Of a stretch of DNA of 64,000 nt, positions 6,672 to 56,092 are shown piece by piece. How positions within the stretch are numbered: position 1 is the stretch's first letter; every line of letters begins with the position of its first letter. The translations under genes were made by a program, and so were the position numbers. Source of the stretch: Candidatus Aenigmatarchaeota archaeon. Lineage in GTDB: Archaea > Aenigmatarchaeota > Aenigmatarchaeia > QMZP01. The notes below the pieces were generated by a model, which saw nothing but the letters and a program-made list of their open reading frames with translations, was not told the DNA's origin and ran no database searches. The stretch covers positions 269 through 64,268 of the forward strand of contig JACPNN010000021.1 in assembly GCA_016185435.1 (NCBI GenBank). The letters are read 5' to 3'.

Positions 6672-7820
6672 ATGGGTTCCGGAAATCGTTCCAGAGAAAT
6701 GAAAGGAGAGGAGAAAGGCGACAATGGCTTCATTTATGTCCTGATAGCAGGAGTGGTTGTGCTGGCGGCGCTTTTCATTCTTGGCCCGATGATACAGCTC
6801 CCGGAAGACACAGGCAAAGTGAAGGCCGTCCACACATTCTCAGTGGGCAAGGTCGGCGTGTCCGCAGGCAGCTTCAAGAGCCAGACAATAGGCACTTTCC
6901 AGGTTGGTGAGACACAGAAAGAGGTGCTGAAGCTGCTTGGAAGAGTGGAGATAGAAAACGGCATCCCAGGCACAAAAACTCAGGAATATCCAATAGCAAT
7001 CCCTGACTATCTTCTTGAATCCCTTAAGGACATAAAAGTTTCCTTTGACATTGTGGAGACAAACCAGTATGGAGAGCTTATATTCGAATGGAACGGGAAG
7101 GAGGTGTTCAGAAGGAAGGCGGCCAGCAGGGAGTGGAGCTTCACCATACCAAGGGATAATGTGGGCAGGCTCAACACGCTTAAGGTGCATGCCTCTTCGC
7201 CAGGCCTCATATTCTGGGCATCGACCGTATACAAGCTCGAGCCATTCGAGGTGTCTGCAGAATACGGCCCGTCAAAGCTCTTCGGCTTCCAGCTGAGCCA
7301 AAAGGAGCTGGAGACGTTCAGCAGGGGGGAGATAGAGTTTTATTCGCTTTCAGGGGCCAAGCTTTCCGTAAGGATCAACGGCAGGCAGATATTCAGCAGG
7401 CCTCCTGAAGGCACAGAAAAGCTCATATTCGATTTCAGCACTGCTCCTGTCTTCTTCGGCCAGAATGTCCTGTCCTTCGAATCATCTTCGCCCGTCACTA
7501 TTGACGGCGCAAGGCTCAAGCTCTATGTGCAGGCCCCTGCAACGGCCTTCCTGGAAAGGTTCAACCTCACAAAGGCCAATATCAACAGCATGAAGAACAA
7601 CAAGGGGAGGGTGAAGGTGGCCGTATCCAGTGTTGACAGGCCGGGAAGCCTCGCAGTTATGCTCAATGGAAAAACGATAGGATCGGAAACTGTTCTGGAG
7701 GTCGCATCCCCCACTTACAAATTTGACGGGGCCGATGCGAGAGAAGGCATGAATGAGATACAGATAACAGGGACAGGGGAGTTCGAGATTGGCCAGGCGG
7801 TTGTGGGGGTTGAGGGGTGA
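6672..7820 (+). CDS. membrane-anchored extracellular protein of unknown function
   Basis: N-terminal TM helix (FIYVLIAGVVVLAALFILG) followed by ~340-aa hydrophilic domain; last 23 aa duplicated downstream at 8519-8590. Confidence 0.45.
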   Translation: MGSGNRSREMKGEEKGDNGFIYVLIAGVVVLAALFILGPMIQLPEDTGKVKAVHTFSVGKVGVSAGSFKSQTIGTFQVGETQKEVLKLLGRVEIENGIPGTKTQEYPIAIPDYLLESLKDIKVSFDIVETNQYGELIFEWNGKEVFRRKAASREWSFTIPRDNVGRLNTLKVHASSPGLIFWASTVYKLEPFEVSAEYGPSKLFGFQLSQKELETFSRGEIEFYSLSGAKLSVRINGRQIFSRPPEGTEKLIFDFSTAPVFFGQNVLSFESSSPVTIDGARLKLYVQAPATAFLERFNLTKANINSMKNNKGRVKVAVSSVDRPGSLAVMLNGKTIGSETVLEVASPTYKFDGADAREGMNEIQITGTGEFEIGQAVVGVEG

Positions 7821-7885
7821 TATTGCCGATATGACATTAATTGAGCCAACTGCTGCTGGTATTCTCAGCGATATTCTCTATATTT
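7749..7885 (+). repeat. copy A of ~137-bp direct repeat (spans 3' end of gene 6672-7820 and 5' end of gene 7831-8517)
   Basis: Aligns at ~80% identity with 8519-8655, including ATGAATGA(R)ATMCAGAT...GCCAGGCGGTTG(Y)GGGGGTTGAGGG and CCAACTGCTGCTGGTATTCT. Confidence 0.7.
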
Positions 7886-8517
7886 ATGTAAACCTGATAT
7901 TGCCTCTGTTATTTGTGTTTATGGTTTTTCGCACCCTTGACAAGAAGCGCAATATTTTCCTCAGGCTCGCGATTTCTTCGGCCGCATTTATCATAATGGT
8001 AGCATTTATGTCTTCAATACCACATTTTTTCCCTTCTTCTGCTTGGAGCTCATTATGGATCCCTTCTCTGGCAATCGCTTCCCTTTTTTATGCCACTTTC
8101 AAAGAGAAAAACAAAGCTGGCAAAAGGCTGACATTGTCCATAGGCGTTTTTGTTGCCCTGATAGCTGTGGGACTAGTCATTTCTGAGCTTTTAGGTGAAG
8201 AGGTGTTTAGGGGTCTTGGTGATAGTTTGATTATTCCTGAAGGTCCTGCAGTTTGCCAATACGGGATAATAGAGGCATTTGCTAGCACAACAGATGAGAC
8301 TTTGAATGCCGATTCCATAGTATTGAAAGAGCTTCGGGATTCAGAGGGAAACCCGGTAAAAGGTTTCGATGTGCTTCCTGACGCTTTCCCCCTCAGGAGG
8401 GGAGAGCCGGCCAAGAAAATCATAAGCTTCAACTGCGGAGGAACATGCACAGGTACCTATACGATGATTCTTGTAAAAAACATCAAGAGAATAACTCGCA
8501 CTGTGACATGCGAATAA
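7831..8517 (+). CDS. 4-TM membrane protein with Cys-containing C-terminal domain, unknown function
   Basis: MTLIEPTAAGILSDILYIYVNLILPLLF... hydrophobic N-terminal half; C-terminal FNCGGTCTGTYTMILV...VTCE; flanked by direct repeats. Confidence 0.4.
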   Translation: MTLIEPTAAGILSDILYIYVNLILPLLFVFMVFRTLDKKRNIFLRLAISSAAFIIMVAFMSSIPHFFPSSAWSSLWIPSLAIASLFYATFKEKNKAGKRLTLSIGVFVALIAVGLVISELLGEEVFRGLGDSLIIPEGPAVCQYGIIEAFASTTDETLNADSIVLKELRDSEGNPVKGFDVLPDAFPLRRGEPAKKIISFNCGGTCTGTYTMILVKNIKRITRTVTCE

Positions 8518-8518
8518 T

Positions 8519-8655
8519 ATGAATGAAATCCAGATTACGGGAATGGAAGAGTTTGAAGTGAGCCAGGCGGTTGCGGGGGTTGAGGGATGAGATGTTGTGA
8601 CAGTAATTGGGCCAACTGCTGCTGGTATTCTAGATTATATTCTCAATGTTTATAT
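8519..8655 (+). repeat. copy B of ~137-bp direct repeat (degenerate duplicate of upstream gene end and gene-X start)
   Basis: Encodes relic 23-aa ORF MNEIQITGMEEFEVSQAVAGVEG (compare C-terminus ...MNEIQITGTGEFEIGQAVVGVEG of gene 6672-7820) and a truncated VTVIGPTAAGILDYILNVYMYGKFPWLLCCS copy of the gene-X N-terminus. Confidence 0.7.
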
Positions 8656-8738
8656 GTATGGCAAATTTCCATGGTTACTCTGTTGCTCTTAAACAGCGAG
8701 CCACATACCTATTTATAAGCAGTTGGGCAAATAGTATC

Positions 8739-9383
8739 ATGAATTCTAATGTAAAACGCGCACTAATTGAGCTTAAGGAAGGCAAGATGATTGTACTGTA
8801 TGATGAAGACAAACGAGAAGGCGAAGCTGATTTAATTTTTCATGCGGCCTCTGTAAACCCTGAAAAGATTGAAACGCTAAGAAGACATGCGGGAGGGTTA
8901 ATTTGTCTGGCAATCGGTAAGAATATAGCAGAAAGACTTAACTTGCCTTTTATTAGCGATGTTCTTGCAAGCAATCAGACAGCTGCAAAAATGATAGTCA
9001 AGAAAACGGCTTATGGAGATAAACCTGCATTTTCTATTGCTATCAATCACAAAAGCGTGTATACCGGGATACCGGATAACGATCGTGCACTAACGATAAG
9101 GGAGTTTGCAAAAATAATAAATGAAAATAATAGAATAGAAGGAAAGTTTGTAAACAACTTCTATACGCCTGGGCACGTTTTTCTTTTGATCGATCGTGGA
9201 TTAGAGGTGCGAAGAGGGCACACCGAACTTTCGATAGAACTTGCGAAACGATCAGGATTAAGCGAAGCCATGGTACTTTGCGAAATGCTCGGGGAAGGCA
9301 AGGCGCTTAGCAAAAAAGCTGCGATGGAATATGCTAAAAGTCGCAACTTAGTTTTCTTAGAAGGGAGGGAGATATATGGTTAA
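8739..9383 (+). CDS. ribB: 3,4-dihydroxy-2-butanone 4-phosphate synthase (RibB)
   Basis: LYDEDKREGEADLIFHAA and TPGHVFLL motifs of DHBP synthase; AT-rich codon usage unlike the flanks. Confidence 0.7.
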   Translation: MNSNVKRALIELKEGKMIVLYDEDKREGEADLIFHAASVNPEKIETLRRHAGGLICLAIGKNIAERLNLPFISDVLASNQTAAKMIVKKTAYGDKPAFSIAINHKSVYTGIPDNDRALTIREFAKIINENNRIEGKFVNNFYTPGHVFLLIDRGLEVRRGHTELSIELAKRSGLSEAMVLCEMLGEGKALSKKAAMEYAKSRNLVFLEGREIYG

Positions 9384-10272
9384 AGAGAGAGAAAAGAAAA
9401 AGATTGGTATTGTCGACACGATGTTCTCAAGAATAGATATGGGTGCGATAGCTCTGGATGAACTTAAAAAAGCGAAAGGACTACAAATAAGTAGGAGAAC
9501 TGTTCCTGGGATAAAAGATATTGGAGTTGAATGCAAACGCTTAATCGAAGAAGATGACTGTGATGCGTGTTTGGCTTTAGGTTATGTTGGCGGTGCAGAA
9601 ATAGATAAACAATGCGCGCATGAGGCATCTCTAGCCATAATGCAAGCTAAGCTTTTAACCAACAAACATATTCTGGAGGCGTTTGTATTTGAGGACGAGG
9701 CATGGAACGAGACAGAGTTATTGGAAATTGCAGAAAATCGCGTTCGCAAGCATGCGCAAAATGCTGTTGCGATTGTAAAAAATCCAAAAGCACTTACTAA
9801 ATTTGCTGGAAGAGGAATAAGACAAGGAAAGGAAGATGAGGGAGAGATAGAAGAAACGAATAAGAAATTTGCTATGGGCGTTGTTGTTTCTGAATTTAAT
9901 AAGGATATTACTGGAAAAATGGAAAGTATCGCTAAGCAGTATGCAGAGAAAAGGGGGATTACAATAAATAGAATAATCAAAGTTCCAGGTGCATATGATA
10001 TTCCGTTAGCAGCTAAAAGATTGCTAAGCGAAAAGGATGTAGATGCAATAGTAACGCTAGGGGCAATTCTAAAAGGAGAAACAAAGCATGATGAGGTAAT
10101 TGCACAATCAACTGCTATGATGCTTTCCCAGCTAGCGTGTGAATTTAGGAAACCTGTGGCGTTAGGGATAATAGGTCCAAAAGTTACATGGGAACAGGCA
10201 AGCGAACGCGCAGAAGGCTATACAAAGCGCGCTATAGACGCTGCGATTAAATTATACGAGGCGATAAAATGA
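9376..10272 (+). CDS. ribC-ribH: archaeal-type riboflavin synthase (RibC) fused in frame to lumazine synthase (RibH)
   Basis: N-terminal half KKIGIVDTMFSRIDMG...RTVPGIKD...CAHEASLAIMQAKLLTNKHILEAFVFEDEA matches archaeal RibC (MJ1184-like). C-terminal half ...KVPGAYDIPLAAKRL...GAILKGETKHDEV... matches the RibH fold. Single continuous 298-aa ORF. Confidence 0.6.
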   Translation: MVKEREKKKIGIVDTMFSRIDMGAIALDELKKAKGLQISRRTVPGIKDIGVECKRLIEEDDCDACLALGYVGGAEIDKQCAHEASLAIMQAKLLTNKHILEAFVFEDEAWNETELLEIAENRVRKHAQNAVAIVKNPKALTKFAGRGIRQGKEDEGEIEETNKKFAMGVVVSEFNKDITGKMESIAKQYAEKRGITINRIIKVPGAYDIPLAAKRLLSEKDVDAIVTLGAILKGETKHDEVIAQSTAMMLSQLACEFRKPVALGIIGPKVTWEQASERAEGYTKRAIDAAIKLYEAIK

Positions 10273-10436
10273 GCGTCAAGCATATTGCAAACTCTCTATT
10301 CTTCCAACACAGTTTGGCAAATTTATGGTTCATGCGTTTGTTGATGATGACAAAAAAGAGCATATCGCATTAGTGAAAAAAGTAAGAGTGATATGACAGC
10401 AGTGCGCATCCATTCAAAATGTTTTACTGTCGCGCA

Positions 10437-10480
10437 AACCCCCTCAACTTGACCTCCTGTACAAGCGAATTCCAGTTGAT
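10437..10480 (+). repeat. intergenic ~38-bp conserved motif, copy 1 (GTCGC(G/A)CA...CCCTCAACTTGACCTCCTGT(A/G)CAAGC)
   Basis: ctgtcgcgcaaaccccctcaacttgacctcctgtacaagcgaat; related copies at 11784-11829 and 12661-12700, all same orientation, each at a cassette boundary. Confidence 0.6.
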
Positions 10481-10591
10481 TGGCAGGATACAGAGCACAA
10501 ATCCTGCAGTCTGCAATCCATTGGACGGCAGGAAATTTTTCGTGAAAAAGGCCGTATTGGCCATCCTTGCAAAGGCCGTTTTCGGCATGAT

Positions 10592-11158
10592 ATGAAATGG
10601 TACAAGAAATACCATGATTTTGGTAAAGTATTTAAATATCAGAAAGAATATACCATTAAAGTGGTAAAAATGGTCTCAGTGGAAACATTGATGAAGGAAG
10701 GCAAAGTAAGCAGGATAAGGGAGCTTGAAGTGGAAAGATACGTGAATTTCTTTGAGAATTCATACAGGGACAATCTGGGGCACTGCATGTTCAGCCTAAA
10801 GGAATTCCCGAGATGGAGCATCATTTCAGGGTATTACGCCATGCACGACATCACTAAGCTGCTTATTGCAAAGAAGTACAGGCTGAAAATAGAGCTGGAA
10901 GTTCATGCAACCACCATAAAAGTCCTGAAGGAATTATTGGGGGACAGGGTAATTCTGCGGCTGATCGAGAGGGGATACAGGGAATTCATTTCTTTGGCCA
11001 ACGATCTTGCCGAAGCAAAGAGGCAGCGAACTCGGGCGCAATATTACACAGGCACAGAATACATGAAAGAGCATTTCGGAAAGATGTCCGAAGAGTTCCT
11101 TGCTGCAACAGTCAATCCGTACGTGCAACGCATCAGAAAGCTCCTGGAGGCGGCGTGA
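10592..11158 (+). CDS. HEPN-domain protein (toxin component of HEPN/MNT module); internal start at 10670 possible
   Basis: GYYAMHDITKLLIAKKYRLK... HEPN-like helices; 4-bp overlap with downstream nucleotidyltransferase gene. Confidence 0.55.
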   Translation: MKWYKKYHDFGKVFKYQKEYTIKVVKMVSVETLMKEGKVSRIRELEVERYVNFFENSYRDNLGHCMFSLKEFPRWSIISGYYAMHDITKLLIAKKYRLKIELEVHATTIKVLKELLGDRVILRLIERGYREFISLANDLAEAKRQRTRAQYYTGTEYMKEHFGKMSEEFLAATVNPYVQRIRKLLEAA

Positions 11159-11724
11159 TTATGATAAGCCAGATATTCGACAGCGGGTCCTTCAAAGTGC
11201 TGGCGCTGTTTGCGCTGTCGCCGGGCTCGAGGTTCAGGAGAAAGGAGATAAAGGAAAGGATAAAGTTACACAATGTGCCGCTGGATAAATCTCTTTCCAA
11301 GCTTGCCAGTTCGGGCATGATAAAAAAAGAAGGCGCCTACTATTCCATAAACTTTGGAAACAGTCAAACGGAAAATGTCATAACCATTGTTGCACAACAG
11401 CATAAGCAGCTGAAAAACATCCCGCTGGATGTCCACTTGCTGCTTGCTGATATTGCTGCAGAGATCGCTGCCATCAAAGGGCTGGAGATCTGGCTTTTCG
11501 GCTCTTATTCAAAGCTGGTATACAGCGAAAAATCAGATGTGGATGTTGCGGTTCTCGGGCCGGAAAGCATCGATAAGCAGCGCATCAGAAGGCTTTTCAA
11601 AAGGCTGGAAAGGCATTACGGCAAAGAGATAGGGGAGCATTTTTTCGAGCTGCATGCCTTTTACAGGAATAAAAAGGACCCGCTCGTGAAGGAGATACTG
11701 CAACATGGGATACGTCTTCTATAG
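11155..11724 (+). CDS. minimal nucleotidyltransferase (MNT) of HEPN/MNT pair
   Basis: LEIWLFGSYSKLVYSEKSDVDVAVLG = GS...D.D nucleotidyltransferase-fold motif. Confidence 0.6.
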   Translation: MIMISQIFDSGSFKVLALFALSPGSRFRRKEIKERIKLHNVPLDKSLSKLASSGMIKKEGAYYSINFGNSQTENVITIVAQQHKQLKNIPLDVHLLLADIAAEIAAIKGLEIWLFGSYSKLVYSEKSDVDVAVLGPESIDKQRIRRLFKRLERHYGKEIGEHFFELHAFYRNKKDPLVKEILQHGIRLL

Positions 11725-11783
11725 CCTCAAAATTTGCTGACAATCATTGTCATCCGGCCACATTTTTGAAATCGTCCATTAGT

Positions 11784-11829
11784 TTGTCGCACACATCCCT
11801 TTCAACTTAACCTCCTGTGCAAGCACAAT
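11784..11829 (+). repeat. intergenic ~38-bp conserved motif, copy 2
   Basis: ttgtcgcacacatccctttcaacttaacctcctgtgcaagcacaat. Confidence 0.6.
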
Positions 11830-11870
11830 GGTAGGTTAAGCCAGCAGGCTGTTTATGTTTTATTGGATAA

Positions 11871-12635
11871 TTAAATTTTTGATTGTAAAGTTTTTTCCGA
11901 AGCGGAAATCAAATCGCAATACCAAAAGCCAGTTGTGGGATGTGTATTTGTTCCGCAAGCATAACCCGTATCATTTTCTTTCTTTGGTTGTGGAACATAT
12001 TTGCGATATACGGTTTCGCCTTTTGTGAATTGAAGTGATTTTTGGAAAATAGGACCATCATAAACGAAAGTATGAAACTCTCCGTATTCACCGCAAGGGT
12101 CAATTTTTTCGGGCAAGTCATTTAAAAAATGTTGGTCAAATTCTCTGCCGGCAAAGGATTGGTCCAGATGTTTTTCATCCACACAAATTATTATGGCTTT
12201 AAATGCTAAATCAATAAATTCCTTGGCTAATTGTTTGGTTGAAAGCTGCCAGAGAGGAAATACGCCTTTGAAATCAGCAAGGGCTAACTGTTCCTCCCTG
12301 TATTTTCGCAGGTCGGCTAAAAAAATATCTCCGAAAACAGCATGATGAATATTTTCTTGCTTGAAATTGTAAAGTGCGTCTGACATCATTTGATTGTATG
12401 TTTCCATTGTGGGCCAGTCGGGCATAACGAGTTTGTGCAAAGGAATTCCAATGCTGTGGGCTTGCTGTTCTAATAGTTCTGCACGAACGCCGTGCATTGA
12501 AATGCGATTATATTTCTCACTGATAGAAGTTACCAAATATGGAATTTCGTATTCTCCGTTTTGTAAAATTTTATGGAGTGCAAGAGAAGAATCTTTTCCA
12601 CCGCTCCAGTTGAATATGGCTTTTGGTTTTGTCAT
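11871..12635 (-). CDS. PP-loop ATPase of the MJ0570/Dph6 (diphthine-ammonia ligase-like) family
   Basis: N-terminal NWSGGKDSSLAL PP-loop; C-terminal CGEYGEFHTFVYDGPIF block typical of this family; very AT-rich relative to neighbours. Confidence 0.55.
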   Translation of the reverse strand: MTKPKAIFNWSGGKDSSLALHKILQNGEYEIPYLVTSISEKYNRISMHGVRAELLEQQAHSIGIPLHKLVMPDWPTMETYNQMMSDALYNFKQENIHHAVFGDIFLADLRKYREEQLALADFKGVFPLWQLSTKQLAKEFIDLAFKAIIICVDEKHLDQSFAGREFDQHFLNDLPEKIDPCGEYGEFHTFVYDGPIFQKSLQFTKGETVYRKYVPQPKKENDTGYACGTNTHPTTGFWYCDLISASEKTLQSKI

Positions 12636-12660
12636 AGATTATTTTATTTGCCCGTTTCAT

Positions 12661-12700
12661 CCATCCGAAAGGTCGCACACCCCCCCCTCAACTTGACCTC
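12661..12700 (+). repeat. intergenic ~38-bp conserved motif, copy 3
   Basis: ggtcgcacaccccccctcaacttgacctcctgtgcaaac. Confidence 0.6.
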
Positions 12701-12786
12701 CTGTGCAAACTAATGCGAAAAAATATCTTCTTAACCCCATAAAAACCAAAATTAAAATGGGGGCAAGCCAGCAAATGCCGGAAGAA

Positions 12787-15330: not shown

Positions 15331-16153
15331 TTAGGTGATTAGGTCATTTCCGGACCAAATTACCTCCTTTTGTTATATTGACCAACAACTTAAAAACATC
15401 TTCGTTCCGGTGGTTGAACCGGAACTCCATTTCCTTCAGATAGAACGGATAGTTGACCATGTTGATGCCGTGATATTTGTGGAATCGTTCCTTGGCATAT
15501 GACCAGAATCCTTCTATGCCATTGATGTGATTGTGGGACTTGCCAAAAGTGTATCCATGATTGATTTTGTTGTGCTTGCCGAACTGTTTCAGGGACTTGT
15601 ATGACTTGAAGTAGTCTGTGTAGAACACAGAACCCTTCACAGACTTCTTCTTTATCTCACCCATCAGCGTCTTGGCTTTGACATTGATCACGACTTTGGT
15701 GTAGACCTTGCCATTGCGTTCCAGTATGCCGAATACGATAGCCTTGTTGAATGCCCCACGACCTCTCTTGCCCTTCCTCTTGCCGCCGAAATATGTCTCG
15801 TCAAGCTCCAGTTGTCCGGCGAGCTTAACGAATTCCTGGTCTAGATGCGCCATTATGGACATTCTGAAATCCATGTATCGGGCATGAACGGTCCTATACG
15901 GCACTGAAAGCTCTTTGGCGGCTTTGAGCGCTGATACTTCGATATAGAAGTAGTACAGAATCTCCAGGTCTCTCCTTAACTTGTGCAGGCTGTATGCACG
16001 TCTGCAATGTCTGCATTTTTTCCTTCCGTCGGCAAGTTTGTACAGGCCGTACTTGCCGCAGTAGAAGCACTTTTTGCCGTTGAAAATGTTGTCTGGCACT
16101 CTTTTCGATAGCATTATACCCTTTTTTGGTACGGAACTTTATCAATCACCTAA
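15331..16153 (-). mobile_element. IS1595-family insertion sequence (~823 bp) with ~29-bp imperfect terminal inverted repeats
   Basis: Left end TTAGGTGATTAGGTCATTTCCGGACCAAA (15331-15359); right end reverse complement TTAGGTGATTGATAAAGTTCCGTACCAAA (16125-16153); single transposase ORF inside; no clean target-site duplication seen. Confidence 0.7.
15344..16114 (-). CDS. tnp: IS1595-family (ISH4-like) transposase
   Basis: N-terminal CxxC...CxxC zinc finger, DETYFGGKRKGKRGRGA...VFGILER...TDYFKSY...HNKINH conserved blocks. Confidence 0.7.
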   Translation of the reverse strand: MLSKRVPDNIFNGKKCFYCGKYGLYKLADGRKKCRHCRRAYSLHKLRRDLEILYYFYIEVSALKAAKELSVPYRTVHARYMDFRMSIMAHLDQEFVKLAGQLELDETYFGGKRKGKRGRGAFNKAIVFGILERNGKVYTKVVINVKAKTLMGEIKKKSVKGSVFYTDYFKSYKSLKQFGKHNKINHGYTFGKSHNHINGIEGFWSYAKERFHKYHGINMVNYPFYLKEMEFRFNHRNEDVFKLLVNITKGGNLVRK

Positions 16154-17495: not shown

Positions 17496-18119
17496 TTACA
17501 AAGTATCTGACCACAATTCGTCAACAGTGTAGCTTATTTTGTTCTGTTTGAGAAAGCCCAGTATTTGTTCCCTGTTTTCCATTGGAATCAGGATGACGGC
17601 TTTCCCCAGTTTTTTGCCCTTGAACTTTTTAACCAGGCCCATTCCGGTATAAACCTTGTTTCCAACCTTCTGCTTATATCCATACAGCTTCCTCCATATC
17701 CTCATTTGCCTGGACGGCCCGATGCCTTTCAAACTCATCTTTATCAGCATATAATAACAGATTTTTTCCGGCATTTCATTATACTTCCCATACAGCAATA
17801 TTCCAGAGCTTATTACCTCCCTTCTTAAAGACCATTCTCTAAGATTTCCGACTTTGACCGTGATTTCATTGGCTACTCCTTTCAGCTTCCAGATTTCATA
17901 AATGCTGGACATTCTGAAGAGAGACAGCAGTTTATCAACCTCCTTTTCAATGTCCACATGCGTATCTACAAACAGATCCACATCACTTTCCTCATCAAAG
18001 TCACCTCTCGCGACAGAGCCAAAAAGGATTATTTTGTCTATTTTATCGGCTATTTTGCTGTCCAGCAAGAACGAGGCAAAACTCATGGCATAACCCATCA
18101 GACTATTTCTCTCCGCCAT
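17496..18119 (-). CDS. minimal nucleotidyltransferase (MNT) of HEPN/MNT pair 2
   Basis: ILFGSVARGDFDEESDVDLFV motif; paralog of 48162-48794 (LYGYKQKVGNKVYTGMGLV vs LYGYRQKTAYYKGMIEL). Confidence 0.6.
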   Translation of the reverse strand: MAERNSLMGYAMSFASFLLDSKIADKIDKIILFGSVARGDFDEESDVDLFVDTHVDIEKEVDKLLSLFRMSSIYEIWKLKGVANEITVKVGNLREWSLRREVISSGILLYGKYNEMPEKICYYMLIKMSLKGIGPSRQMRIWRKLYGYKQKVGNKVYTGMGLVKKFKGKKLGKAVILIPMENREQILGFLKQNKISYTVDELWSDTL

Positions 18120-28264: not shown

Positions 28265-28265
28265 A

Positions 28266-36385: not shown

Positions 36386-36408
36386 CTTGGCCAAACTAGC
36401 CAAATTCT

Positions 36409-36443
36409 GAGCTGGTGAAGGCGTACAGTTTGAAGATAAGGGA
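36409..36443 (+). repeat. 35-bp perfect direct repeat copy 2
   Basis: See 35445-35479. Confidence 0.85.
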
Positions 36444-46285: not shown

Positions 46286-46342
46286 AAGAAAAATAAGGAA
46301 GCTGCAAATAAGTATTAATAGGGCCTAGGAAGAAATATCTAT

Positions 46343-46729
46343 ATGCACCCGAAGATGAGCAGGTTCGGGGACGCGAAGGCCGAGATAAAGAAGGCCTCAT
46401 CGCTTCCCGGAGCCGAGTTCCTGGATAAGGCCTACAGAATCCTGTATTCCAGATGCAAATACACAGGGTTCGGCCTTTTTGGAGAGAACGGCCAGAAGGC
46501 TGTTTTCGGGGCTATTGGAGCGGATTCTGAAAAAGCAATTGAAAAGGCAAAAGCATCCGGTAAAATATCGACCTCAGGGAAGGCCATTTCAGCTCCCATA
46601 GGAAACAATGGCAATGTACTGGCATATATGGCGATAGAGAGCTTCCTGCCTTTCTTTGATGACCTTGACAGGAATATTGTCGAGTTCTTGGCAAAGACGC
46701 TGGAGGAGAAGATGGGGGAGCTGCAATAA
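46343..46729 (+). CDS. GAF-like small protein, paralog 1
   Basis: 128 aa; KYTGFGLFGENGQKAVFG... resembles the GAF/fRMsr-like core; 85% identical paralog at 47266-47652. Confidence 0.35.
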   Translation: MHPKMSRFGDAKAEIKKASSLPGAEFLDKAYRILYSRCKYTGFGLFGENGQKAVFGAIGADSEKAIEKAKASGKISTSGKAISAPIGNNGNVLAYMAIESFLPFFDDLDRNIVEFLAKTLEEKMGELQ

Positions 46730-46863
46730 GCTGCTTTTCTGGATCATATACAATTGTACCTACTCGCATGCCTGATCTTATAATCAAAACAAAATCCAAA
46801 AGGAAAAAAATAATTGCGCCCTACTTCCGCTTTCCAGGCTTTATCCGCCTTTAGCGCGTCAGA

Positions 46864-47037
46864 TTAGAACCTTCTTTCAGGCTTGTGTTTCTGGAAGCAG
46901 TCCCTGCAGTAAACAGGCCTGCCTTCAGTGGGCTTGAAAGGCACTTTGCATGCCTGACCACAGTCCGCACATGTTGCATCGTGCTCTTCCCTGGGGCCGA
47001 AGCTTCTGCCTCCGAAGCCACCTTCTCTGAATGCCAT
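46864..47037 (-). CDS. 57-aa CxxC...CxxC zinc-ribbon protein, copy 1 (not in track)
   Basis: MAFREGGFGGRSFGPREEHDATCADCGQACKVPFKPTEGRPVYCRDCFQKHKPERRF; conserved second copy at 48907-49086. Confidence 0.5.
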   Translation of the reverse strand: MAFREGGFGGRSFGPREEHDATCADCGQACKVPFKPTEGRPVYCRDCFQKHKPERRF

Positions 47038-47265
47038 TTTTTCACTCCTCTTTTCTTATATGCCAAAACAGACTCAATTGAAGCTGCCTTGGAGATGCCG
47101 GCCAAAGAATCAACTTCCTTGCTAGGGCTGTATGCCGCCCAACATCCAGTTAAATAATGTACGACTGGTTTTTAAAGGCATACTCTCGGCAGGGGAGCCG
47201 CTATGGAGCGTCAAAAGAACTGCTTTCTTTATTTTTTGAAATAGGGCCTCGGAAGAAATATCTAT

Positions 47266-47652
47266 ATGCACCCCAAGATGAGCAGGTTCGGGGACGCGAA
47301 GGCCGAGATAAAGAAGGCCTCATCGCTTCCCGGAACCGAGTTCCTGGAGAAGGCCTACAGCATACTGTATTCGAGATGCAAGTACACAGGGTTTGGACTT
47401 TTCGGAGAAAACAACCAGAAAATTGCTTTTGGAAATATCGGCACTGACTCTGAAAAAGCAATTGAAAAGGCAAAGGCATCCGGTAAAATATCGACATCTG
47501 GAAAAGCTATTTCCTCATCCATCGGAAACAATGGAAACGTTACCGCTTATCTGGCCATCGAGAGCTTCCTGCCTTTCTTTGACGATCTGGACAGGAATAT
47601 GGCGGAGTTCCTGGCGAAAATATTGGAGGAGAAGGCCGGAGAGCTGCTATAG
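47266..47652 (+). CDS. GAF-like small protein, paralog 2
   Basis: Tandem paralog including duplicated upstream region. Confidence 0.35.
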   Translation: MHPKMSRFGDAKAEIKKASSLPGTEFLEKAYSILYSRCKYTGFGLFGENNQKIAFGNIGTDSEKAIEKAKASGKISTSGKAISSSIGNNGNVTAYLAIESFLPFFDDLDRNMAEFLAKILEEKAGELL

Positions 47653-47770
47653 ACCTTTTTGTGCGAATTCTTCTGACAGGTTCAGATATATACAATTGTA
47701 CCAACTGATAGCTACAAAAGTAGAAAATCTTTATATACAAGTGTAGCTAAAATTATATACAAGTGTAGCT

Positions 47771-48169
47771 ATGAACAGGGAGACGCATAAAAGGAACATT
47801 ATGGAAAGCGTGGAAGTAATCAGGGAATGCATAGACAAAGGCGTTGAAAAGAGGCAGAGAACGATAGGCTTTCACTGCTCTTCAGCAGCTACAGACATGC
47901 TTGAGCTGTTTCTTCACGAGAACAATCTCATAGATCCGGGCGCAAACATAAAGCATGACTACTTCTCCTCCATCAGGAAAGCAGAGGAAAAGCTGAATTT
48001 CGAGTTTCCGAACAAGCAAAAAATAATAAAGCTGCTGGTTGAAATCGAGAATAAAAGGAATCTCCTGTGCTATGGAAAGCCGCAGGAAAAAGAAGAAATA
48101 GAAAAATATATTGAGTTGTTCAATACTTCAAAGAGTGTTTTTGAAAAGGCGGGGATTAGATATGAATGA
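47771..48169 (+). CDS. HEPN-like partner of MNT (pair 3)
   Basis: Paralog of 18103-18504; overlaps downstream MNT gene. Confidence 0.45.
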   Translation: MNRETHKRNIMESVEVIRECIDKGVEKRQRTIGFHCSSAATDMLELFLHENNLIDPGANIKHDYFSSIRKAEEKLNFEFPNKQKIIKLLVEIENKRNLLCYGKPQEKEEIEKYIELFNTSKSVFEKAGIRYE

Positions 48170-48794
48170 TCTTAGCAAAATGCTGCTTGCTTATACTATG
48201 GACTTTGCTTCATTTCTTGCTTCCAGCCTGAGCAGGGAACAGTTTGCCAACATAAAATCTGTAGTTGTTTTTGGATCTGTTTCAAGGGGCGAGGCAGAAA
48301 AGGGCAGCGACATAGATGTTTTCATTGATGTGATAAGGCAGGACAGCATTGAAAAAAAGGTTGCCGGAATACTGAAGGATTTTTACGAAACAGAGATTTT
48401 CAGGAGATGGAAGCTGAAAGGCATTGAGAACAAGATAAACTGCATAACCGGCAATCTGGATTCCTGGAAAGAACTAAGAATTTCGGTGCTAGCCAATGGG
48501 ATTGCAATCTATTCGAAATACGCAGGACGGTCCAATGGAAAGCAGTATGTCATCATCTACTGGAATGCGATAAAATCGGCGTCGAAACGTGTGCAGCTGA
48601 GCAAGAAGCTGTACGGTTACAGGCAGAAGACTGCGTACTATAAAGGGATGATTGAGCTGACAGGCTCGATCAAGCTCGGCCCGAACTGCATGCTTTCGCC
48701 CCTTGAATCGGCAAAAGCTGTTATTGATGTTATTCGCAATTCTGGAACCGCTGCAAGAACAATATATGTGCAAAGGATAGATGATGTTGGCTGA
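48162..48794 (+). CDS. minimal nucleotidyltransferase (MNT) of pair 3
   Basis: VVFGSVSRGEAEKGSDIDVFIDV motif; paralog of 17496-18119. Confidence 0.6.
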   Translation: MNDLSKMLLAYTMDFASFLASSLSREQFANIKSVVVFGSVSRGEAEKGSDIDVFIDVIRQDSIEKKVAGILKDFYETEIFRRWKLKGIENKINCITGNLDSWKELRISVLANGIAIYSKYAGRSNGKQYVIIYWNAIKSASKRVQLSKKLYGYRQKTAYYKGMIELTGSIKLGPNCMLSPLESAKAVIDVIRNSGTAARTIYVQRIDDVG

Positions 48795-48906
48795 GGTGCA
48801 GAATGTTAGAAATTTCTGAAAAACTGCAAAACAAAATCCAAAAGGAAAAAAAATAATTGCGCCCTACTTCCGCTTTCCAGGCTTTATCTGCCTCTATCGC
48901 GTCAGA

Positions 48907-49086
48907 TTAGAACCTTCTTTCAGGCTTGTGCTTCTGGAAGCAGTCCCTGCAGTAAACAGGCCTGCCTTCAGTGGGCTTGAAAGGCACTTTGCATGGCTGT
49001 CCGCAGTCCGAACAGGTTGCATCGTGCTCTTCTCTCGGGCCGAAGCTTCTTCCGCCGAATCGGCCGCCGCCTTCTCTGAATGCCAT
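48907..49086 (-). CDS. 59-aa zinc-ribbon protein, copy 2 (not in track)
   Basis: MAFREGGGRFGGRSFGPREEHDATCSDCGQPCKVPFKPTEGRPVYCRDCFQKHKPERRF. Confidence 0.5.
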   Translation of the reverse strand: MAFREGGGRFGGRSFGPREEHDATCSDCGQPCKVPFKPTEGRPVYCRDCFQKHKPERRF

Positions 49087-49375
49087 TTTTTACACTCCTC
49101 TTGCTTTATATGCCAAAAACAGTCTCATTCCGAGAGCTGCCTTGGAGATGCTTGCCAAAGAAACAAGTTCCTGGCTATGGCCGAAAGCCACTCAACACCC
49201 AGTTAAATAATGTACAATTGCTTTTTAAAGGCATACCCCCTGTAGCGTGCCGCTATGACATCAGTTCTCAGGCGTGATCCAGGGGAAGAAACGGTGGCGC
49301 TCTCCAGCGGCCTTTTTAAAACGTATTTAAATGCATGCTACTATAGTATTAACATCAATTTTGAGCCCCTCCACT

Positions 49376-51057: not shown

Positions 51058-51065
51058 GGGATATT

Positions 51066-51320
51066 ATGGCAAAAGACATCATACTGTCGACAACACAGGA
51101 AATACCGGGAAGGGGGAGTGGCAAAGATCCTTGGGATAGTCAAAGGAAACTCCATACGCTCGAGAGGCGTCGGAGGGCATATAGCGCTTCCCTTGAAAGC
51201 CTTCTCGGAGGGGAGATAACAGCTTATCTGGAGAAGCGCATGAAGATAGAGTCTTCAGAAGTGATGCAGAACGCCGCTGAAATATTGGCATATGGGACAA
51301 CGATAAAATTGAGATCATAA
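51066..51320 (+). CDS. 84-aa ORF in the extra DNA between rpoB'' and rpoB'
   Basis: MAKDIILSTTQEIPGRGSGKDPWDSQ...; stop TAA overlaps the rpoB' ATG (TAATG); no recognisable homology. Confidence 0.3.
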   Translation: MAKDIILSTTQEIPGRGSGKDPWDSQRKLHTLERRRRAYSASLESLLGGEITAYLEKRMKIESSEVMQNAAEILAYGTTIKLRS

Positions 51321-53419: not shown

Positions 53420-55906
53420 ATGCCGGCACGGCTGAAATCGCTCGAATTCATCCTTCTTGATTCCGAAATAGTGAAGAATATTGCCAGAGTAAGAATTGTG
53501 AACAGCGAGCTTTACGATGCCGACGGCTACCCGATAGAAGGAGGGGTCATGGACCCAAGGCTCGGAGTCATTGATCCCGGCCTGTACTGCAGGACATGCA
53601 ACTGCGGCATAGGGGAATGCATGGGCCATTTCGGCTACCTGGAATTTGCAAGGCCTGTGATCAATGTGCTTTATGTGAAGATCATCCATGAGCTCATGAA
53701 GAAGATATGCTGGAAATGCAGCAGGCTGATCAACCCGGCAGACATAGTGGAAGAGACGAGCACCCAGCCTTCAAAATGCTCCTATTGCGATGCAGTCCAG
53801 AGGAAGGTTAAGTTTGTCAAGCCTTACACATTCTATGAGGACGGCAATGAGCTTGATGCGCTGACGATAAGGGAGAGGTTTGAAAAGATTCCTGCAGGAG
53901 ACACGAAGACGATGGGCTTCAATGGGGGAAGGCCTGAATGGCTGATAATGACCCTCTTCCCTATCCCGCCTGTCACAATGAGGCCTTCCATCACGCTTGA
54001 GACAGGGGAAAGGAGCGAGGATGACCTGACGCACAAGCTTGTCGACATCGTCCGCATCAACCAGTCCCTCAAGGAGAATATAGACATCGGCGCGCCGGAA
54101 TTCATCATAAGGGACTTATGGGAGCTTCTTCAGTACCATGTCTCGACATACTTTGACAATGAGCTGACTGGGGCTCCCCTGGCAAGGCACAGGTCCGGCA
54201 GGCCGCTGAAAGGGATAATACAAAGGCTGAAAGCCAAAGAAGGCAGGCTGAGAGGCAATCTCCTTGGAAAGAGGGTCAACTTTTCTGCCCGGACAGTGAT
54301 TGCGCCCGACCCGAGGCTGAGCATAAACGAGGTTGGCGTTCCAGAGCTTGTGGCAAAGGAAATCACCATCCCGGTGTCCGTCACCAGCCTTAACACAGGC
54401 CATGTCAAGCAGCTGATAAAGGAGGGGCTGGTCAATTATGTCACGAGGCCGGACGGCAGGAAGATAAAGGTCACGGAGGACAACAAGAAGGAAGTTGCGG
54501 AGAACATCAGCCTTGGATGGAGCATCGACAGGCAGCTCATGGATTCTGATGTTGTGATATTCAACAGGCAGCCAAGCCTGCACAGGCCCTCCATAATGGC
54601 CCACAGGGTCAGGGTTATGCCAGGCAAGGCCTTCAGGATCAATCCTTCTGTATGCTTCCCGTACAACGCTGACTTCGACGGCGATGAGATGAACCTCCAT
54701 GCACTGCAGAACGAGGAGGCGAGGACAGAGTCAACTGGCCTGATGCTTGTCGAGAACAATATCATAAGCCCCAAGTTCGGAGGGCCTATAATAGGCCTTG
54801 ACCTTGACCAGCTTTCAGGCTCTTATCTGCTGACAGCCAATGATGTGGAGATGACAAGGGAGGAGGCATGCCAGCTGCTGGCTTTTGCCGGGATAGACAT
54901 TGTGCTTCCGGAAAAGAAGACCTTCAGCGGCAAAGAGATATTCAGCTTCCTGCTCCCTGGAAAGTTCAGCATGGAGCATGATGCGCATTTCGCAAAAAGC
55001 CTCGACAGCAAAGAGAAGGAGAAGCAGGACGGGATAGTGACAATAAGGGACAGCATGCTTGCAAGAGGGAGGGTTGATGAGGCCTCTGTAGGCGCAGAGT
55101 CAGGCTATATAATAGGAAGGATAATAAGGCTTTTTGGCAATGCAGCTGCTGCGCAATTCATAGACAATGCCGCCAGGCTTGCGACAAGCTTCCTCCTCAG
55201 GAGAGGGTTCTCTGCGGGGCTCTCAGATCTTGACCTCCCTGAAAGGGTGAAGAAGGACATCAAGGGAAGGCTGCAGCAGGGAATGAAACATTCAGAGGAT
55301 CTGATCTCGCAGTACAAGGAAGAGGAGCTTGAGATACTTCCGGGCATGACGCCTGAGGAAAGCCTTGAAACCCATATACTCAATGCGCTCTCAAAGAGCA
55401 TAAGCGATGTCAGCACCACAGTTTCTCTTCACATCAAGGAGTCAGACATAGTGGCAATGGCAAAATCAGGGGCAAAGGGCAGCTTCATCAACATATCCCA
55501 GATGATCGCCGGAGTGGGCCAGGAAACCATACTTGGCGAGAGAATAAATTCAGGCTATATAGGCAGGACTTTGCCGCATTTCATGGCCAATGATTTGTCA
55601 GCCACAAGCAGGGGCTTTGTGGGCAGAGGGTTCAGGGAAGGCCTGATGCCATATGAGATATTCTGGGACATCATGAATGGAAGAGAAGGCCTGATGGACA
55701 AGTCCCTCAGGACAAGGAAATCAGGGTACATGCAGAGACGGCTGGTAAATGCCCTGCAGGACCTCAAGGTCAAGAATGATCTGACGGTAAGGAATTCAGT
55801 CAATGAGATTGTCCAGTTCAAGGCCGGGGAAGACGGGATGGATGTGAGCAAAACCGATTTCGGGACGCTGAACTGGAAGAGCATTATCGAGCAGGAAGGG
55901 CTATGA
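53420..55906 (+). CDS. rpoA1: RNA polymerase subunit A'
   Basis: Conserved A' N-terminal blocks (YDADGYPIEGGVMDPRLGVIDPGLYCRTCNC..GECMGHFGYLEFARPV) and the NADFDGDEMN active-site motif. Confidence 0.85.
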   Translation: MPARLKSLEFILLDSEIVKNIARVRIVNSELYDADGYPIEGGVMDPRLGVIDPGLYCRTCNCGIGECMGHFGYLEFARPVINVLYVKIIHELMKKICWKCSRLINPADIVEETSTQPSKCSYCDAVQRKVKFVKPYTFYEDGNELDALTIRERFEKIPAGDTKTMGFNGGRPEWLIMTLFPIPPVTMRPSITLETGERSEDDLTHKLVDIVRINQSLKENIDIGAPEFIIRDLWELLQYHVSTYFDNELTGAPLARHRSGRPLKGIIQRLKAKEGRLRGNLLGKRVNFSARTVIAPDPRLSINEVGVPELVAKEITIPVSVTSLNTGHVKQLIKEGLVNYVTRPDGRKIKVTEDNKKEVAENISLGWSIDRQLMDSDVVIFNRQPSLHRPSIMAHRVRVMPGKAFRINPSVCFPYNADFDGDEMNLHALQNEEARTESTGLMLVENNIISPKFGGPIIGLDLDQLSGSYLLTANDVEMTREEACQLLAFAGIDIVLPEKKTFSGKEIFSFLLPGKFSMEHDAHFAKSLDSKEKEKQDGIVTIRDSMLARGRVDEASVGAESGYIIGRIIRLFGNAAAAQFIDNAARLATSFLLRRGFSAGLSDLDLPERVKKDIKGRLQQGMKHSEDLISQYKEEELEILPGMTPEESLETHILNALSKSISDVSTTVSLHIKESDIVAMAKSGAKGSFINISQMIAGVGQETILGERINSGYIGRTLPHFMANDLSATSRGFVGRGFREGLMPYEIFWDIMNGREGLMDKSLRTRKSGYMQRRLVNALQDLKVKNDLTVRNSVNEIVQFKAGEDGMDVSKTDFGTLNWKSIIEQEGL

Positions 55907-55910
55907 TATG
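55893..55910 (+). repeat. 18-bp perfect direct repeat copy 1 at the rpoA'/rpoA'' junction
   Basis: aggaagggctatgatatg also at 56075-56092; contains rpoA' stop TGA and what would be the overlapping rpoA'' ATG. Confidence 0.85.
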
Positions 55911-56074
55911 GAATATCAACACCAGTATCTAGAGGGATGTAGTATAGGCTTTTCTTCCAAAGAAAAGCCCATCCGGCAAAAGAAGGATATACCAATGATA
56001 AGCATATCCTTCGGTTGCTGGGGGTTGATAAGGGCCCGCAGAGGCCCTTATTGGGATACTTCCCTTCTGCGCCA

Positions 56075-56092
56075 AGGAAGGGCTATGATATG
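56075..56092 (+). repeat. 18-bp perfect direct repeat copy 2 (contains actual rpoA'' start codon)
   Basis: See 55893-55910; 164 bp of unrelated sequence lies between the copies. Confidence 0.85.

Follow-up and report, generated by a model that had tools for sequence, protein, structure and literature searches.

Duplicated gene boundaries flanking small modules in an Aenigmatarchaeota genome resemble insertion with long target duplication

Since 2000, the term insertion with long target duplication has served to describe a class of events that has no established mechanism and is tied to RM cargo and to bacteria (Nobusato et al. 2000, Gene 259:99; Furuta, Abe & Kobayashi 2010, NAR 38:2428, PMC2853133). 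In the cases described by Furuta et al. (2010, PMC2853133), RM genes without mobility genes are flanked by repeats that are long, variable, sometimes imperfect, and often placed across a start or stop codon, and a related genome with the empty site has the repeat only once. That screen asked for repeats >30 bp, an insert <20 kb, and RM cargo; the hosts were bacteria, mostly naturally competent, no archaeal case passed the screen, and DNA cleavage by the RM cargo was proposed as the cause (PMC2853133). This is the closest known phenomenon to the one described here, and it went unnamed in the first-pass annotation of this DNA.

The window analyzed here is a 64-kb stretch from a MAG of Aenigmatarchaeota (DPANN, tiny-celled archaea). 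It contains four pairs of direct repeats, at loci that we call L1 to L4, and a segmental duplication at 46-49 kb. The pairs are identical at 107/139 positions at L1 (7749-7887 vs 8519-8653; local score 114, shuffle maximum 26), 57/66 at L2 (27810-27875 vs 29220-29285; 87, maximum 29), 35/35 at L3 (35445-35479 vs 36409-36443, or 42 nt at 93%; 70, maximum 25), and 18/18 at L4 (55893-55910 vs 56075-56092; 36, maximum 24), and the neighboring genes are both intact at every one of these loci. Independent per-sample Logan assemblies match the window at 100% at L1 (one run), the left side of L2 (eight runs at the junction), the L3 cargo (one run), and the left side of L4 (four runs at the junction). 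Since they are identical in several independent per-sample assemblies, the repeats and the segmental duplication are not the assembly artefacts that the first-pass annotation had named as grounds for withdrawing its proposal, and its four repeat pairs and 46-49 kb duplication are real and far above chance. Its account of the cargo, as TA-like pairs, a retropepsin module, a membrane protein, and non-coding repeats, was likewise borne out by Pfam and NCBIfam scans.

L4 lies between two RNA polymerase genes, rpoA' and rpoA'', and its parts are as follows.

55893-55910 (+): left repeat, made up of the terminal 13 nt of rpoA' (with its TGA stop), one T, and a duplicate of the rpoA'' ATG
55911-56074 (+): insert of 164 nt, apparently non-coding and forming three strong hairpins
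56075-56092 (+): right repeat, which provides the ribosome-binding region and start codon of rpoA''

The repeat duplicates both the rpoA' stop codon and the rpoA'' start codon. In eight other DPANN loci (L010 and seven more) the distance from the rpoA' stop to the rpoA'' start is 0-7 nt, representing the empty site, and the window alone among these loci carries an additional 182 nt with a perfect 18-nt copy of exactly that junction. With its perfect repeat, L4 looks like a recent insertion. The insert folds at -70.5 kcal/mol (z = -3.2), and a 61-codon ORF (55908-56093) starts at the duplicated ATG and stops at a TGA overlapping the genuine rpoA'' ATG. A region of 43-49 nt around hairpin 1 recurs at 94-98% elsewhere in a related genome (L021, 95-143). 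The insert matched no Rfam family, hairpin matches at E<1 being chance only, and no Rfam match reached the gathering threshold anywhere in the window. Neither a comparison of the hairpin with JGI metagenomes nor an exact look-up of RpoA'' from ATG 56090 returned anything useful.

L3 follows the end of a DUF7502 gene.

35445-35479 (+): left repeat, the genuine DUF7502 gene end, reaching the second nucleotide of the final sense codon
35480-36408 (+): cargo, a 70-aa ORF, then a 92-aa protein, then a 111-aa zinc-ribbon plus MazE/AbrB-like protein
36409-36443 (+): right repeat, a displaced gene-end copy directly upstream of the ATG of a 55-aa gene (36449-36616)

The repeat copies the last ~12 codons of the gene (34746-35483; Pfam DUF7502), whose new TGA stop is overlapped by the ATG of the 70-aa ORF. 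The 92-aa and 111-aa proteins make up a TA-like pair. The cargo has a GC content of 43.8% against 47.4% in the flanks, and one independent Logan contig spans exactly 35450-36443. Given the perfect repeat, L3 too has the look of a recent insertion; the relatives' contigs end at this place. A search of IMG/VR with the antitoxin-like protein gave no useful match. A repeat-specific recombination signal was also considered, as 29 nt at L3 are 100% common with the relative locus L017, yet perfect conservation continues 35 nt upstream into the gene, and we rejected it.

At L2 the duplicated boundary is a gene start.

27810-27875 (+): left repeat, a pseudo-copy of the beginning of a BatA-like gene (5' leader and ~10 codons)
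27899-28538 (-): cargo, a clan-AA aspartic protease (121 aa) and a DUF5678 protein (90 aa), assigned by Pfam and NCBIfam
28611-29026 (+): tandem array, ~3.4 copies of a 114-122-nt unit
29220-29285 (+): right repeat, the genuine leader and start of the BatA-like gene (29254-31107)

The repeat spans 34 nt of the 5' leader and the first ~10 codons. L017 holds the same protease and DUF5678 pair in the same place, at 92-97% amino acid identity, without a 149-nt stretch (27745-27893) that contains the left repeat and with no 114-122-nt tandem array. L2 is an old event, as L017 shares its cargo without the left repeat, which was either deleted in L017 or gained later in the lineage of the window. The cargo is 92-95% identical to L017 on the nucleotide level and the flanks 65-90%, apart from part of the Na/H exchanger gene, at 93-95.5%. 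The 122-nt unit folds no better than shuffles, and the tandem repeats match no Rfam family. In the more distant relative L041 the contig begins at the BatA gene and shows no repeats.

L1 has a different history, and its features extend well beyond the repeats.

7749-7887 (+): copy 1, the genuine end of gene A and genuine start of membrane gene B (7831-8517)
8519-8653 (+): copy 2, a displaced A-end/B-start remnant, at the left edge of DNA missing in both related genomes
8519-12718 (+): 4.2-kb lineage-specific island with ribB, a DMRL-synthase-domain gene, and an NTase two-gene module (10592-11724)
11871-12635 (-): diphthamide-synthase-like gene in the island

The repeat takes in 23 codons from the end of gene A (6672-7820) and ~19 from the start of gene B. 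Relatives pass from gene B straight to the equivalent of window position 12720, and a 32-43-nt repeat occurs within the island at 10439, 11786, and 12672. Judged from these comparisons, gene B, which had been taken for the insert, is ancestral, and the actual gain is 8519-12718, starting with the junction copy. Copy 2 is an outgroup to the three orthologous A ends (78-79% vs 85-89%). L1 is not a simple insertion; it is a partial tandem copy of a junction-containing segment, associated with the gain of an adjacent cassette.

The same holds for the segmental duplication, where a whole unit has been copied.

46317-47239 (+): unit 1, with gene X (46343-46729) and zinc-finger gene Zn (46864-47037, minus)
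47240-49257 (+): unit 2, with X' (47266-47652) and Zn' (48907-49086, minus)
47771-48169 and 48111-48794: two-gene module between X' and Zn', a 132-aa partner and an NTase, respectively

The duplicated segments are 46317-46728 vs 47240-47651 (84%) and 46785-47205 vs 48827-49257 (88%). X' and Zn' are outgroup to X and Zn of the window together with their L010 orthologues, with mostly synonymous divergence; the copy either predates the divergence of the nearest relative or is xenologous. This region is a whole tandem copy of a junction-containing segment with an inserted NTase two-gene module, rather than a simple insertion. The loci do not form one uniform class, given the ancestral gene B at L1, the L2 cargo without the left repeat in a relative, and the old or xenologous copy at 46-49 kb.

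We observed the same anatomy in relatives. Three further small cassettes, in two other Aenigmatarchaeota genomes, are flanked by 71-79-nt copies of a neighboring gene end or start. In L007, a HEPN plus MNT pair is flanked by a 71-nt repeat (94%, with a 50-nt perfect core) of the 3' end of a convergent A24 peptidase gene. In L010, a second HEPN plus MNT pair is flanked by a 79-nt repeat (90%) of the 3' end of an M15 peptidase gene, with 271 extra nt between the repeat and the neighbor gene; the window has a 2-nt spacer at this place, an empty site. A DUF2283 gene, also in L010, is flanked by a 75-nt repeat (95%) of a gene 5' end. Two other repeat pairs were left uncounted, a low-complexity Lys/Glu-rich repeat in L005 and an ambiguous case in L015.

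Together with L1-L4, these cassettes make up seven events. A start or stop codon lies <=7 nt from each of the seven repeats, and the repeat identities form a graded series (100, 100, 95, 94, 90, 86, and 77%), suggestive of an ongoing process. In four of the seven events the repeat is 66-79 nt long. GC content is clearly lower in four of the seven cargos (L3 and all three cassettes of relatives), at 40-44% against 45-49% in the flanks, and differs by only 1-2 points at L1, L2, and L4. Repeats accompany 6 of ~17 tested lineage-specific indels, and their presence in only some indels fits a stochastic repair outcome and not an obligatory transposition signature. A single cassette moving between sites was rejected, as cargo proteins from different loci show either no relationship or no more than 31-37% identity. 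The empty site of L4 and the three further events in relatives uphold the central claim of the first-pass annotation, that gene junctions are recurrently duplicated around mostly small addiction-type modules without a recombinase of their own; its genome-wide scope would be an extrapolation from 64 kb. We found no donor copy of any cargo, a JGI metagenome search with a 794-aa neighbor gave no useful match, and our literature search found no direct precedent for archaeal TA modules flanked by target duplications.

Taken together, we consider the chances about balanced that these are genuine, independent events of the kind called insertion with long target duplication, brought about by host-mediated capture and selection. 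Small pieces of foreign DNA, mostly two-gene TA-like modules plus one hairpin-rich non-coding element, would be captured at gene boundaries, leaving 18 to ~80 nt of the boundary target sequence on either side of the insert. Since the cargos are mutually unrelated and one is non-coding, a cargo-encoded mechanism is unlikely; the cargo types are also not RM, which makes cargo-encoded DNA cutting unlikely. We infer a break- or fork-based mechanism combined with a selective filter, in which host break repair or replication, and no cargo-borne enzyme, would be responsible. Either a staggered break may be filled in once the foreign DNA is joined, or a fork may switch template to the foreign DNA and re-enter upstream of its exit point. 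Selection would then retain only events in which the duplication lies across a start or stop codon, as tight genome packing means that only such events would spare both neighbors and their translation signals. Addiction-type cargo would oppose later loss, while the displaced copy would decay, from 100% (L3, L4) through ~94-95% (two events in relatives) to ~77-90% (L1, L2, and one event in relatives).

Several observations count against host capture. The clustering of four of the seven repeats at 66-79 nt is not predicted by it, the L2 cargo occurs in L017 without the left repeat, and 271 extra nt are present at the M15 event of L010. In addition, X'/Zn' and the L1 remnant, as outgroups to the orthologues with largely synonymous divergence, may be xenologous DNA acquired via recombination and not duplications made in situ.

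A joint reading, which we offer tentatively and think unlikely, is that Aenigmatarchaeota have a host-encoded, cargo-independent boundary-capture pathway whose repeat-cargo-repeat products are minimal mobile elements. Such a pathway would make target duplications of 18-140 nt, often ~70-80 nt, and the resulting units would loop out and re-enter related genomes at a conserved gene end without a recombinase of their own, seeding addiction modules even within the RNA polymerase operon.

Campbell-type homologous recombination alone, in which a donor loop-out circle carrying cargo and a conserved gene end undergoes a single crossover in a related cell and leaves repeat-cargo-repeat, has perhaps a one-in-several prospect of being right. 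Repeats would then be diverged from birth wherever donor and recipient differ, which suits the long perfect cores within diverged repeats (18 and 19 nt at L2, 40 nt at L010, 50 nt at L007), and variable repeat length would be natural. The L2 cargo, conserved between genomes above most of its flanks, points the same way, as do X'/Zn' and the L1 remnant, which resemble another lineage's alleles, and the L3 cargo, which completes the upstream gene with a synonymous final codon and a new stop codon, as though derived from the region after an orthologue. However, the 18 nt of L4 are very short for homologous recombination, the origin of the first molecule joining cargo to gene end is left unexplained, no second genome with L3 or L4 was found, and the order at L1 (repeat, B, repeat, island) is unlike that predicted for a single crossover.

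Decayed plasmid or virus integrations at gene 3' or 5' ends, with att repeats and an addiction module left behind, or integrase-less units mobilized in trans, seem to us a doubtful source. An intact gene followed by cargo and a displaced gene-end copy is the attL/attR anatomy at a protein-gene target, perfect cores sit inside diverged repeats, and TA modules are plausible last survivors of such elements. However, no integrase was present among the window ORFs scanned against Pfam, and the genes called in four relative loci (~53 kb) have no integrase-family match among the Pfam hits listed. The absence of an integrase from the scanned ORFs, seven different targets with no tRNA gene among them, and repeats of 18-139 nt argue against a single integrase, and make the trans-acting recombinase at gene-end sites that had been suggested earlier less likely, though one may be encoded elsewhere in the genome, outside these 64 kb. 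The cargos, at 0.16-1.3 kb and one of them non-coding, also speak against decayed elements. If the displaced copy were the original host gene end, as expected of an integrative element, it should resemble the orthologues more than the in-gene copy does; this is not so at L1, and at the M15 event of L010 both copies are 87% identical to the window orthologue, with small numbers in both comparisons.

The cargo proteins include no mobility gene by Pfam and NCBIfam scans of inserts of 0.16-1.4 kb, and terminal inverted repeats at the cargo ends score no better than shuffles in all seven units. The statement that no recombinase or transposase accompanies the loci is accurate for the loci and their immediate surroundings, and less so for the span as a whole, which includes an IS1595-family transposase gene (15344-16114, minus) in an element at 15331-16153 with 29-nt terminal inverted repeats. 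This element adjoins none of the loci, and the transposase nearest to L1 is ~7 kb away.

Local tandem duplication by slippage or unequal crossing-over, followed by decay or replacement of one copy and with no foreign insertion, is improbable as an account of the whole set. The doubled 923-nt unit at 46.3-49.3 kb, the arrangement of L1, in which a 770-nt unit with an ancestral gene is present in 1.18 tandem copies, and the 122-nt array at L2, which shows slippage at work here, all favor it. Slippage alone cannot yield the cargo of L2-L4, because that cargo is unrelated to neighboring DNA. The cargo of the three events in relatives is likewise unrelated to adjacent sequence, the lower GC of L3 and these cassettes also argues against it, and L4 is missing in 8 relatives. 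Tandem duplication fails as a general explanation and stands for L1 and the X/Zn segment only. Finally, strain variants threaded in series by the assembler would suit a metagenome-assembled genome with several repeats diverged like co-occurring strains, but this is scarcely credible, as single-run unitig assemblies reproduce the regions at 100% and the critical joins (e.g., 8517|8519) have no common k-mer.

Several described systems share features with these units. Cis-mobilizable elements of streptococci are integrase-less remnants of site-specific integrative elements at gene 3' ends, and archaeal SSV- or pTN3-type integration targets tRNA genes. Such remnants resemble the present units in their direct repeats of the target gene end, the reconstituted gene, and the perfect core in a longer imperfect repeat, whereas here no integrase is seen, protein-gene starts as well as ends are used, the targets are many, and the inserts are far smaller. 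Ghaly and colleagues reportedly found, in 2022, that integron gene cassettes occur in archaeal MAGs too. Like integron cassettes, the units are small, promoter-poor, often TA modules, and serially inserted, and the 32-43-nt repeat between cassettes of the L1 island (10.4-12.7 kb) is an integron-like point. However, no IntI is seen, the repeats are local gene-end copies rather than an attC-type imperfect palindrome, and the cassettes are scattered; an integron cassette array was rejected, there being no integrase, no common sequence among the repeats at four loci, and no shared attC-like site. DNA transposons and MITEs, such as the IS1595-family element here, also duplicate their target directly. 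Their duplication is short and of fixed length, usually <10 bp although 19-26 bp for IS1630 (PMC2853133), and their ends carry terminal inverted repeats; membership of this class was rejected for the present units, which are without terminal inverted repeats and have duplications of 18-139 nt rather than one fixed short length.

Insertion with long target duplication matches most closely, in a small unit without transposase or integrase, long variable repeats, and an intact target gene. Repeats exceed 30 bp at L3 (35 nt), L2 (66), L1 (139), and the relatives' events (71, 75, and 79), with L4 below at 18 nt, and all inserts are free of mobility genes by cargo scans and well under 20 kb. A single repeat copy marks the empty site of L4 (in 8 loci) and of the M15 event (in the window; the 271 extra nt apply here); the relative of L2 has the cargo with one repeat copy, and L1 as first framed has no such site. 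The RM cargo is replaced by RNase-type and other TA-like modules, a DUF2283 gene, and a non-coding hairpin element, RM cargo having been a screening rule of Furuta et al. (2010) and not a mechanistic one. The host is a DPANN archaeon, whereas that class was described in bacteria, so host domain and cargo type both differ. The occurrence of this anatomy in three or more DPANN archaeal genomes with other cargo speaks for a process of the host and against one encoded by the cargo. It also shows a route by which a compact genome could take in new genes at junctions as tight as rpoA'/rpoA'' with translational coupling unbroken, and the lineage would be a natural data set for the mechanism, through junction sequences and the distribution of repeat lengths. 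If a host pathway is indeed responsible, this class of insertion would represent a general, cross-domain mode of gene gain and not a property of restriction enzymes.

All four repeat pairs reported in the first-pass annotation were found at the coordinates it gives, with local alignment scores of 36-114 against shuffle maxima of 24-29. Its descriptions of the cargo, meaning the DNA between two direct repeats, also hold for every kind named, including a membrane protein and non-coding repeats.

Repeats and gene cargo at the window loci
L1, 7749/8519: repeat copies the last 23 codons of gene A (6672-7820) and the first ~19 codons of membrane gene B (7831-8517)
L2, 27810/29220: repeat copies the 5' leader and first ~10 codons of a BatA-like gene; cargo, a clan-AA aspartic protease and a DUF5678 protein
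L3, 35445/36409: repeat copies the last ~12 codons of a DUF7502 gene; cargo pair, a zinc-ribbon/MazE-like protein and a 92-aa partner
L4, 55893/56075: repeat copies the rpoA' stop codon and the rpoA'' start codon

Assembly artefact was ruled out by unitig-based single-run assemblies that are 100% identical to the window across the loci. In these, L1 is reproduced at 100% in one run, within a 25-kb contig, the left junctions of L2 and L4 at 100% in eight and four runs, respectively, and the L3 cargo at 100% on one contig, extending from a point inside the left repeat through the whole of the right one. The statement that no transposase accompanies the units needs a correction; none adjoins the loci, but the window does encode one:

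15331-16153: IS1595-family insertion sequence; its DDE transposase gene (15344-16114, minus strand) encodes 256 aa, and its terminal inverted repeats are 29 nt long and imperfect

We looked for a clear 8-bp target duplication at this element and none was visible.

The RNA polymerase genes of the window run rpoH, B'', B', A', A'', the archaeal split arrangement, and the nearest public sequences come from Aenigmatarchaeota and other DPANN MAGs; NCBI labels proteins identical to those of the window 'Candidatus Aenigmarchaeota archaeon'. Two related genomes, at about 76-92% nucleotide identity to the window, were compared at the base level: GCA_964372825.1 (loci L010, L023 and L024) and GCA_053536595.1 (loci L017 and L021). 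Comparing every fetched locus with itself revealed three additional repeat-cargo-repeat units.

Units in other genomes
L007 (more distant Aenigmatarchaeota MAG): HEPN (E = 2e-30) and MNT pair; 71-nt repeat, 94%, with a 50-nt perfect core, copying the 3' end of a convergent A24 peptidase gene
L010, M15 unit: HEPN and MNT pair; 79-nt repeat, 90%, from the M15 peptidase 3' end; the window has 2 nt only at this position
L010, DUF2283 unit: DUF2283 gene; 75-nt repeat, 95%, from the 5' end of the adjoining gene

The MNT proteins of the two HEPN/MNT pairs are 49% identical, and their targets differ. Across the seven units the duplications measure 18, 35, 66, 71, 75, 79 and 139 nt, repeat identities are graded from 100% down to 77%, and each of the repeats extends to a start or stop codon. 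The cargo is foreign, unrelated in kind between units and in one case non-coding; it encodes no recombinase, and terminal inverted repeats are absent from all seven units. GC content lies 3-8 points below the flanks in L3 and the three relatives' cassettes and differs by only 1-2 points at L1, L2 and L4. The observation made in the first-pass annotation is confirmed, and its interpretation as a recurrent junction-duplicating process is supported in part. A significant flanking repeat was found in six of the ~17 regions tested (window/relative indels >100 nt plus the L1-L3 units), so events flanked by repeats form one part of a small-cassette turnover that is high in general. Two more two-gene modules occur without flanking repeats:

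17496-18504: NTase and 133-aa partner, minus strand
927-1570: VapB-like/PIN pair, common to both relatives at 86-95% identity

At L4, the rpoA' stop and rpoA'' start are separated by 2 nt in L010 (TGATTATG) and by 0-7 nt in seven further DPANN loci. Among the loci compared, the window alone is longer here, by 182 nt, and a perfect 18-nt duplication of precisely this junction bounds the insert. This 164-nt insert contains three strong hairpins (folding z = -3.2) and matched no Rfam family. About 45 nt of its first-hairpin region recur at 94-98% elsewhere in GCA_053536595.1, and the insert is therefore one of a family of hairpin elements dispersed among intergenic regions. A 61-codon frame running from the duplicated ATG to a TGA that overlaps the true rpoA'' ATG would keep translational coupling through the insert; we estimate a 5-7% chance that it is open by accident. 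Inteins with LAGLIDADG domains are present in RpoA'' (56090-58714) and in a MoxR-type ATPase (36641-39475), the former being absent from L010 (a clean 1,371-nt gap at window 56347/57719). The rpoB''/rpoB' interval (51058-51319, about 260 nt) holds a short YbjQ/DUF74-like ORF (51066-51320), a degraded-looking gene with no flanking repeat; in the relatives this interval is 92-174 nt, unrelated and hairpin-rich. In L021 1-420 (GCA_053536595.1), two fragments of about 60 nt and 16 nt are similar to the 5' portion of a tRNA gene; next to each is a perfect hairpin rich in T/A, and a hairpin related to the L4 insert lies close by. ARAGORN called no tRNA in this stretch, and the fragments may be what is left of an attachment site, or else a split tRNA gene.

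The 35-nt repeat of L3 has no mismatch. Its cargo starts inside the last sense codon of the DUF7502 gene, giving that gene a synonymous GAA for GAG and then a new TGA stop, which the ATG of the first cargo ORF overlaps. Of the relatives' contigs, one stops inside the repeat and the other begins past the MoxR gene, so neither provides an empty site for L3. The protease/DUF5678 pair of L2 occupies the same position in L017, at 92-97% amino-acid identity to the window pair, and L017 lacks both the 149-nt stretch holding the left repeat and the 122-nt tandem array. The left repeat, the right repeat and the orthologous L017 sequence are 85-88% identical pairwise, and the repeat therefore dates from roughly the time at which the two genomes diverged. 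A ~33-nt motif, TGTAAT.TTGGTTGCTCAGGGGAA.AATGGGGA, heads the L2 tandem units (28829-28861, 28951-28982) and occurs again at 94% across the MoxR stop codon (39471-39503), at a distance of 10.6 kb; the entire BatA-to-MoxR gene cluster thus lies between the two copies. Several assemblies break off at the MoxR copy, suggesting that the element is multi-copy.

At L1, gene B had been taken for the inserted unit, and this reading fails: in both relatives gene A is followed by a B orthologue (40-44% identity) and then directly by the equivalent of window 12720, and gene B is therefore ancestral. The DNA specific to the window lineage is the following:

8519-12718: island opening with the displaced A-end/B-start copy (the copy outside the intact genes) and containing riboflavin genes, an NTase two-gene module and a diphthamide-synthase-like gene

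Between the island genes lie three copies (78-91%) of a 32-43-nt repeat (10439-10470, 11786-11828 and 12672-12714), an order that resembles a cassette array, and the whole 4.2-kb island is absent from both relatives. Among the A ends compared, the displaced one falls outside the three orthologues (78-79% versus 85-89%). Upstream, the interval between the Pelota gene and gene A (window 5110-6670) has three different arrangements in three genomes, with a Pup-ligase-like gene alone in the window, a DUF2334 gene alone in L021 and both in L023.

At 46.3-49.3 kb, a 923-nt unit comprising gene X and a treble-clef zinc-finger gene (Zn) occurs twice, with an NTase two-gene module inside the second copy (X'/Zn'); L010 has one X and one zinc-finger gene. 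The second copy is farther from the first than the L010 orthologues are, both for X (83.2% versus 85.8%) and for Zn (90.6% versus 93.7%), and its divergence is largely synonymous. On these identities, it is either an old duplication, since lost from the L010 genome, or a xenologous copy. Both X and X' are followed downstream by a perfect 10-nt palindrome, TACAATTGTA (46746-46764, 47688-47706), and a related TTATATACAAGTGTAGCTA forms two tandem 22-nt copies (47731-47773) directly upstream of the NTase insertion; they resemble a promoter or operator that has been duplicated. Between X and the zinc-finger gene, an interval of 39 nt in the window, L010 carries a 5-kb insertion (2390-7459) with no flanking repeat, encoding an 873-aa protein with a faint M64-peptidase match and three other proteins.

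The explanation we favour, at what we consider an even call, combines host-mediated capture, selection, persistence by addiction and decay of the copies. DNA would be captured by host break repair or replication, through a staggered break that is filled in or a template switch with return to an upstream point. Selection acting on a very compact genome would retain only events that duplicate junction signals; addiction modules would then stay while the displaced repeat copy degenerates. A serious rival is Campbell-type integration, in which circular molecules carrying a cassette and a gene end integrate by homologous recombination. This accounts for the perfect cores within diverged repeats, for the L2 cargo being slightly more conserved than its flanks and for the foreign-looking copies in L1 and X'/Zn', but leaves unexplained both the 18-nt case and the origin of the first cassette and gene-end molecule. 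Decayed site-specific integrative elements are likewise a serious candidate whose anatomy agrees with the units, but the DNA examined contains no integrase, the targets are many and different with no tRNA among them, and the outgroup tests of the repeat copies speak against it. Simple tandem duplication accounts for L1 and the X/Zn segment only.

The closest precedent for these loci is insertion with long target duplication, put forward by Nobusato et al. (2000) after comparing Helicobacter pylori genomes and generalised by Furuta, Abe and Kobayashi in 2010 (PMC2853133). There, restriction-modification (RM) units that lack mobility genes lie between repeats that are long, variable and in some cases imperfect; the empty site has one copy of the repeat, which often lies across a start or stop codon (PMC2853133). 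The authors suggested that DNA breakage by the cargo may cause the insertion, and reported that no archaeal case passed their screen (PMC2853133). In the literature searched we found no report of toxin-antitoxin modules with the same pattern in archaea, which is absence of evidence only. The present loci share the anatomy of the precedent, but they are archaeal rather than bacterial and their cargo is non-RM, differences that argue against a cargo-encoded cause. They are best filed as an archaeal, non-RM-cargo form of a known, mechanistically unexplained insertion class.
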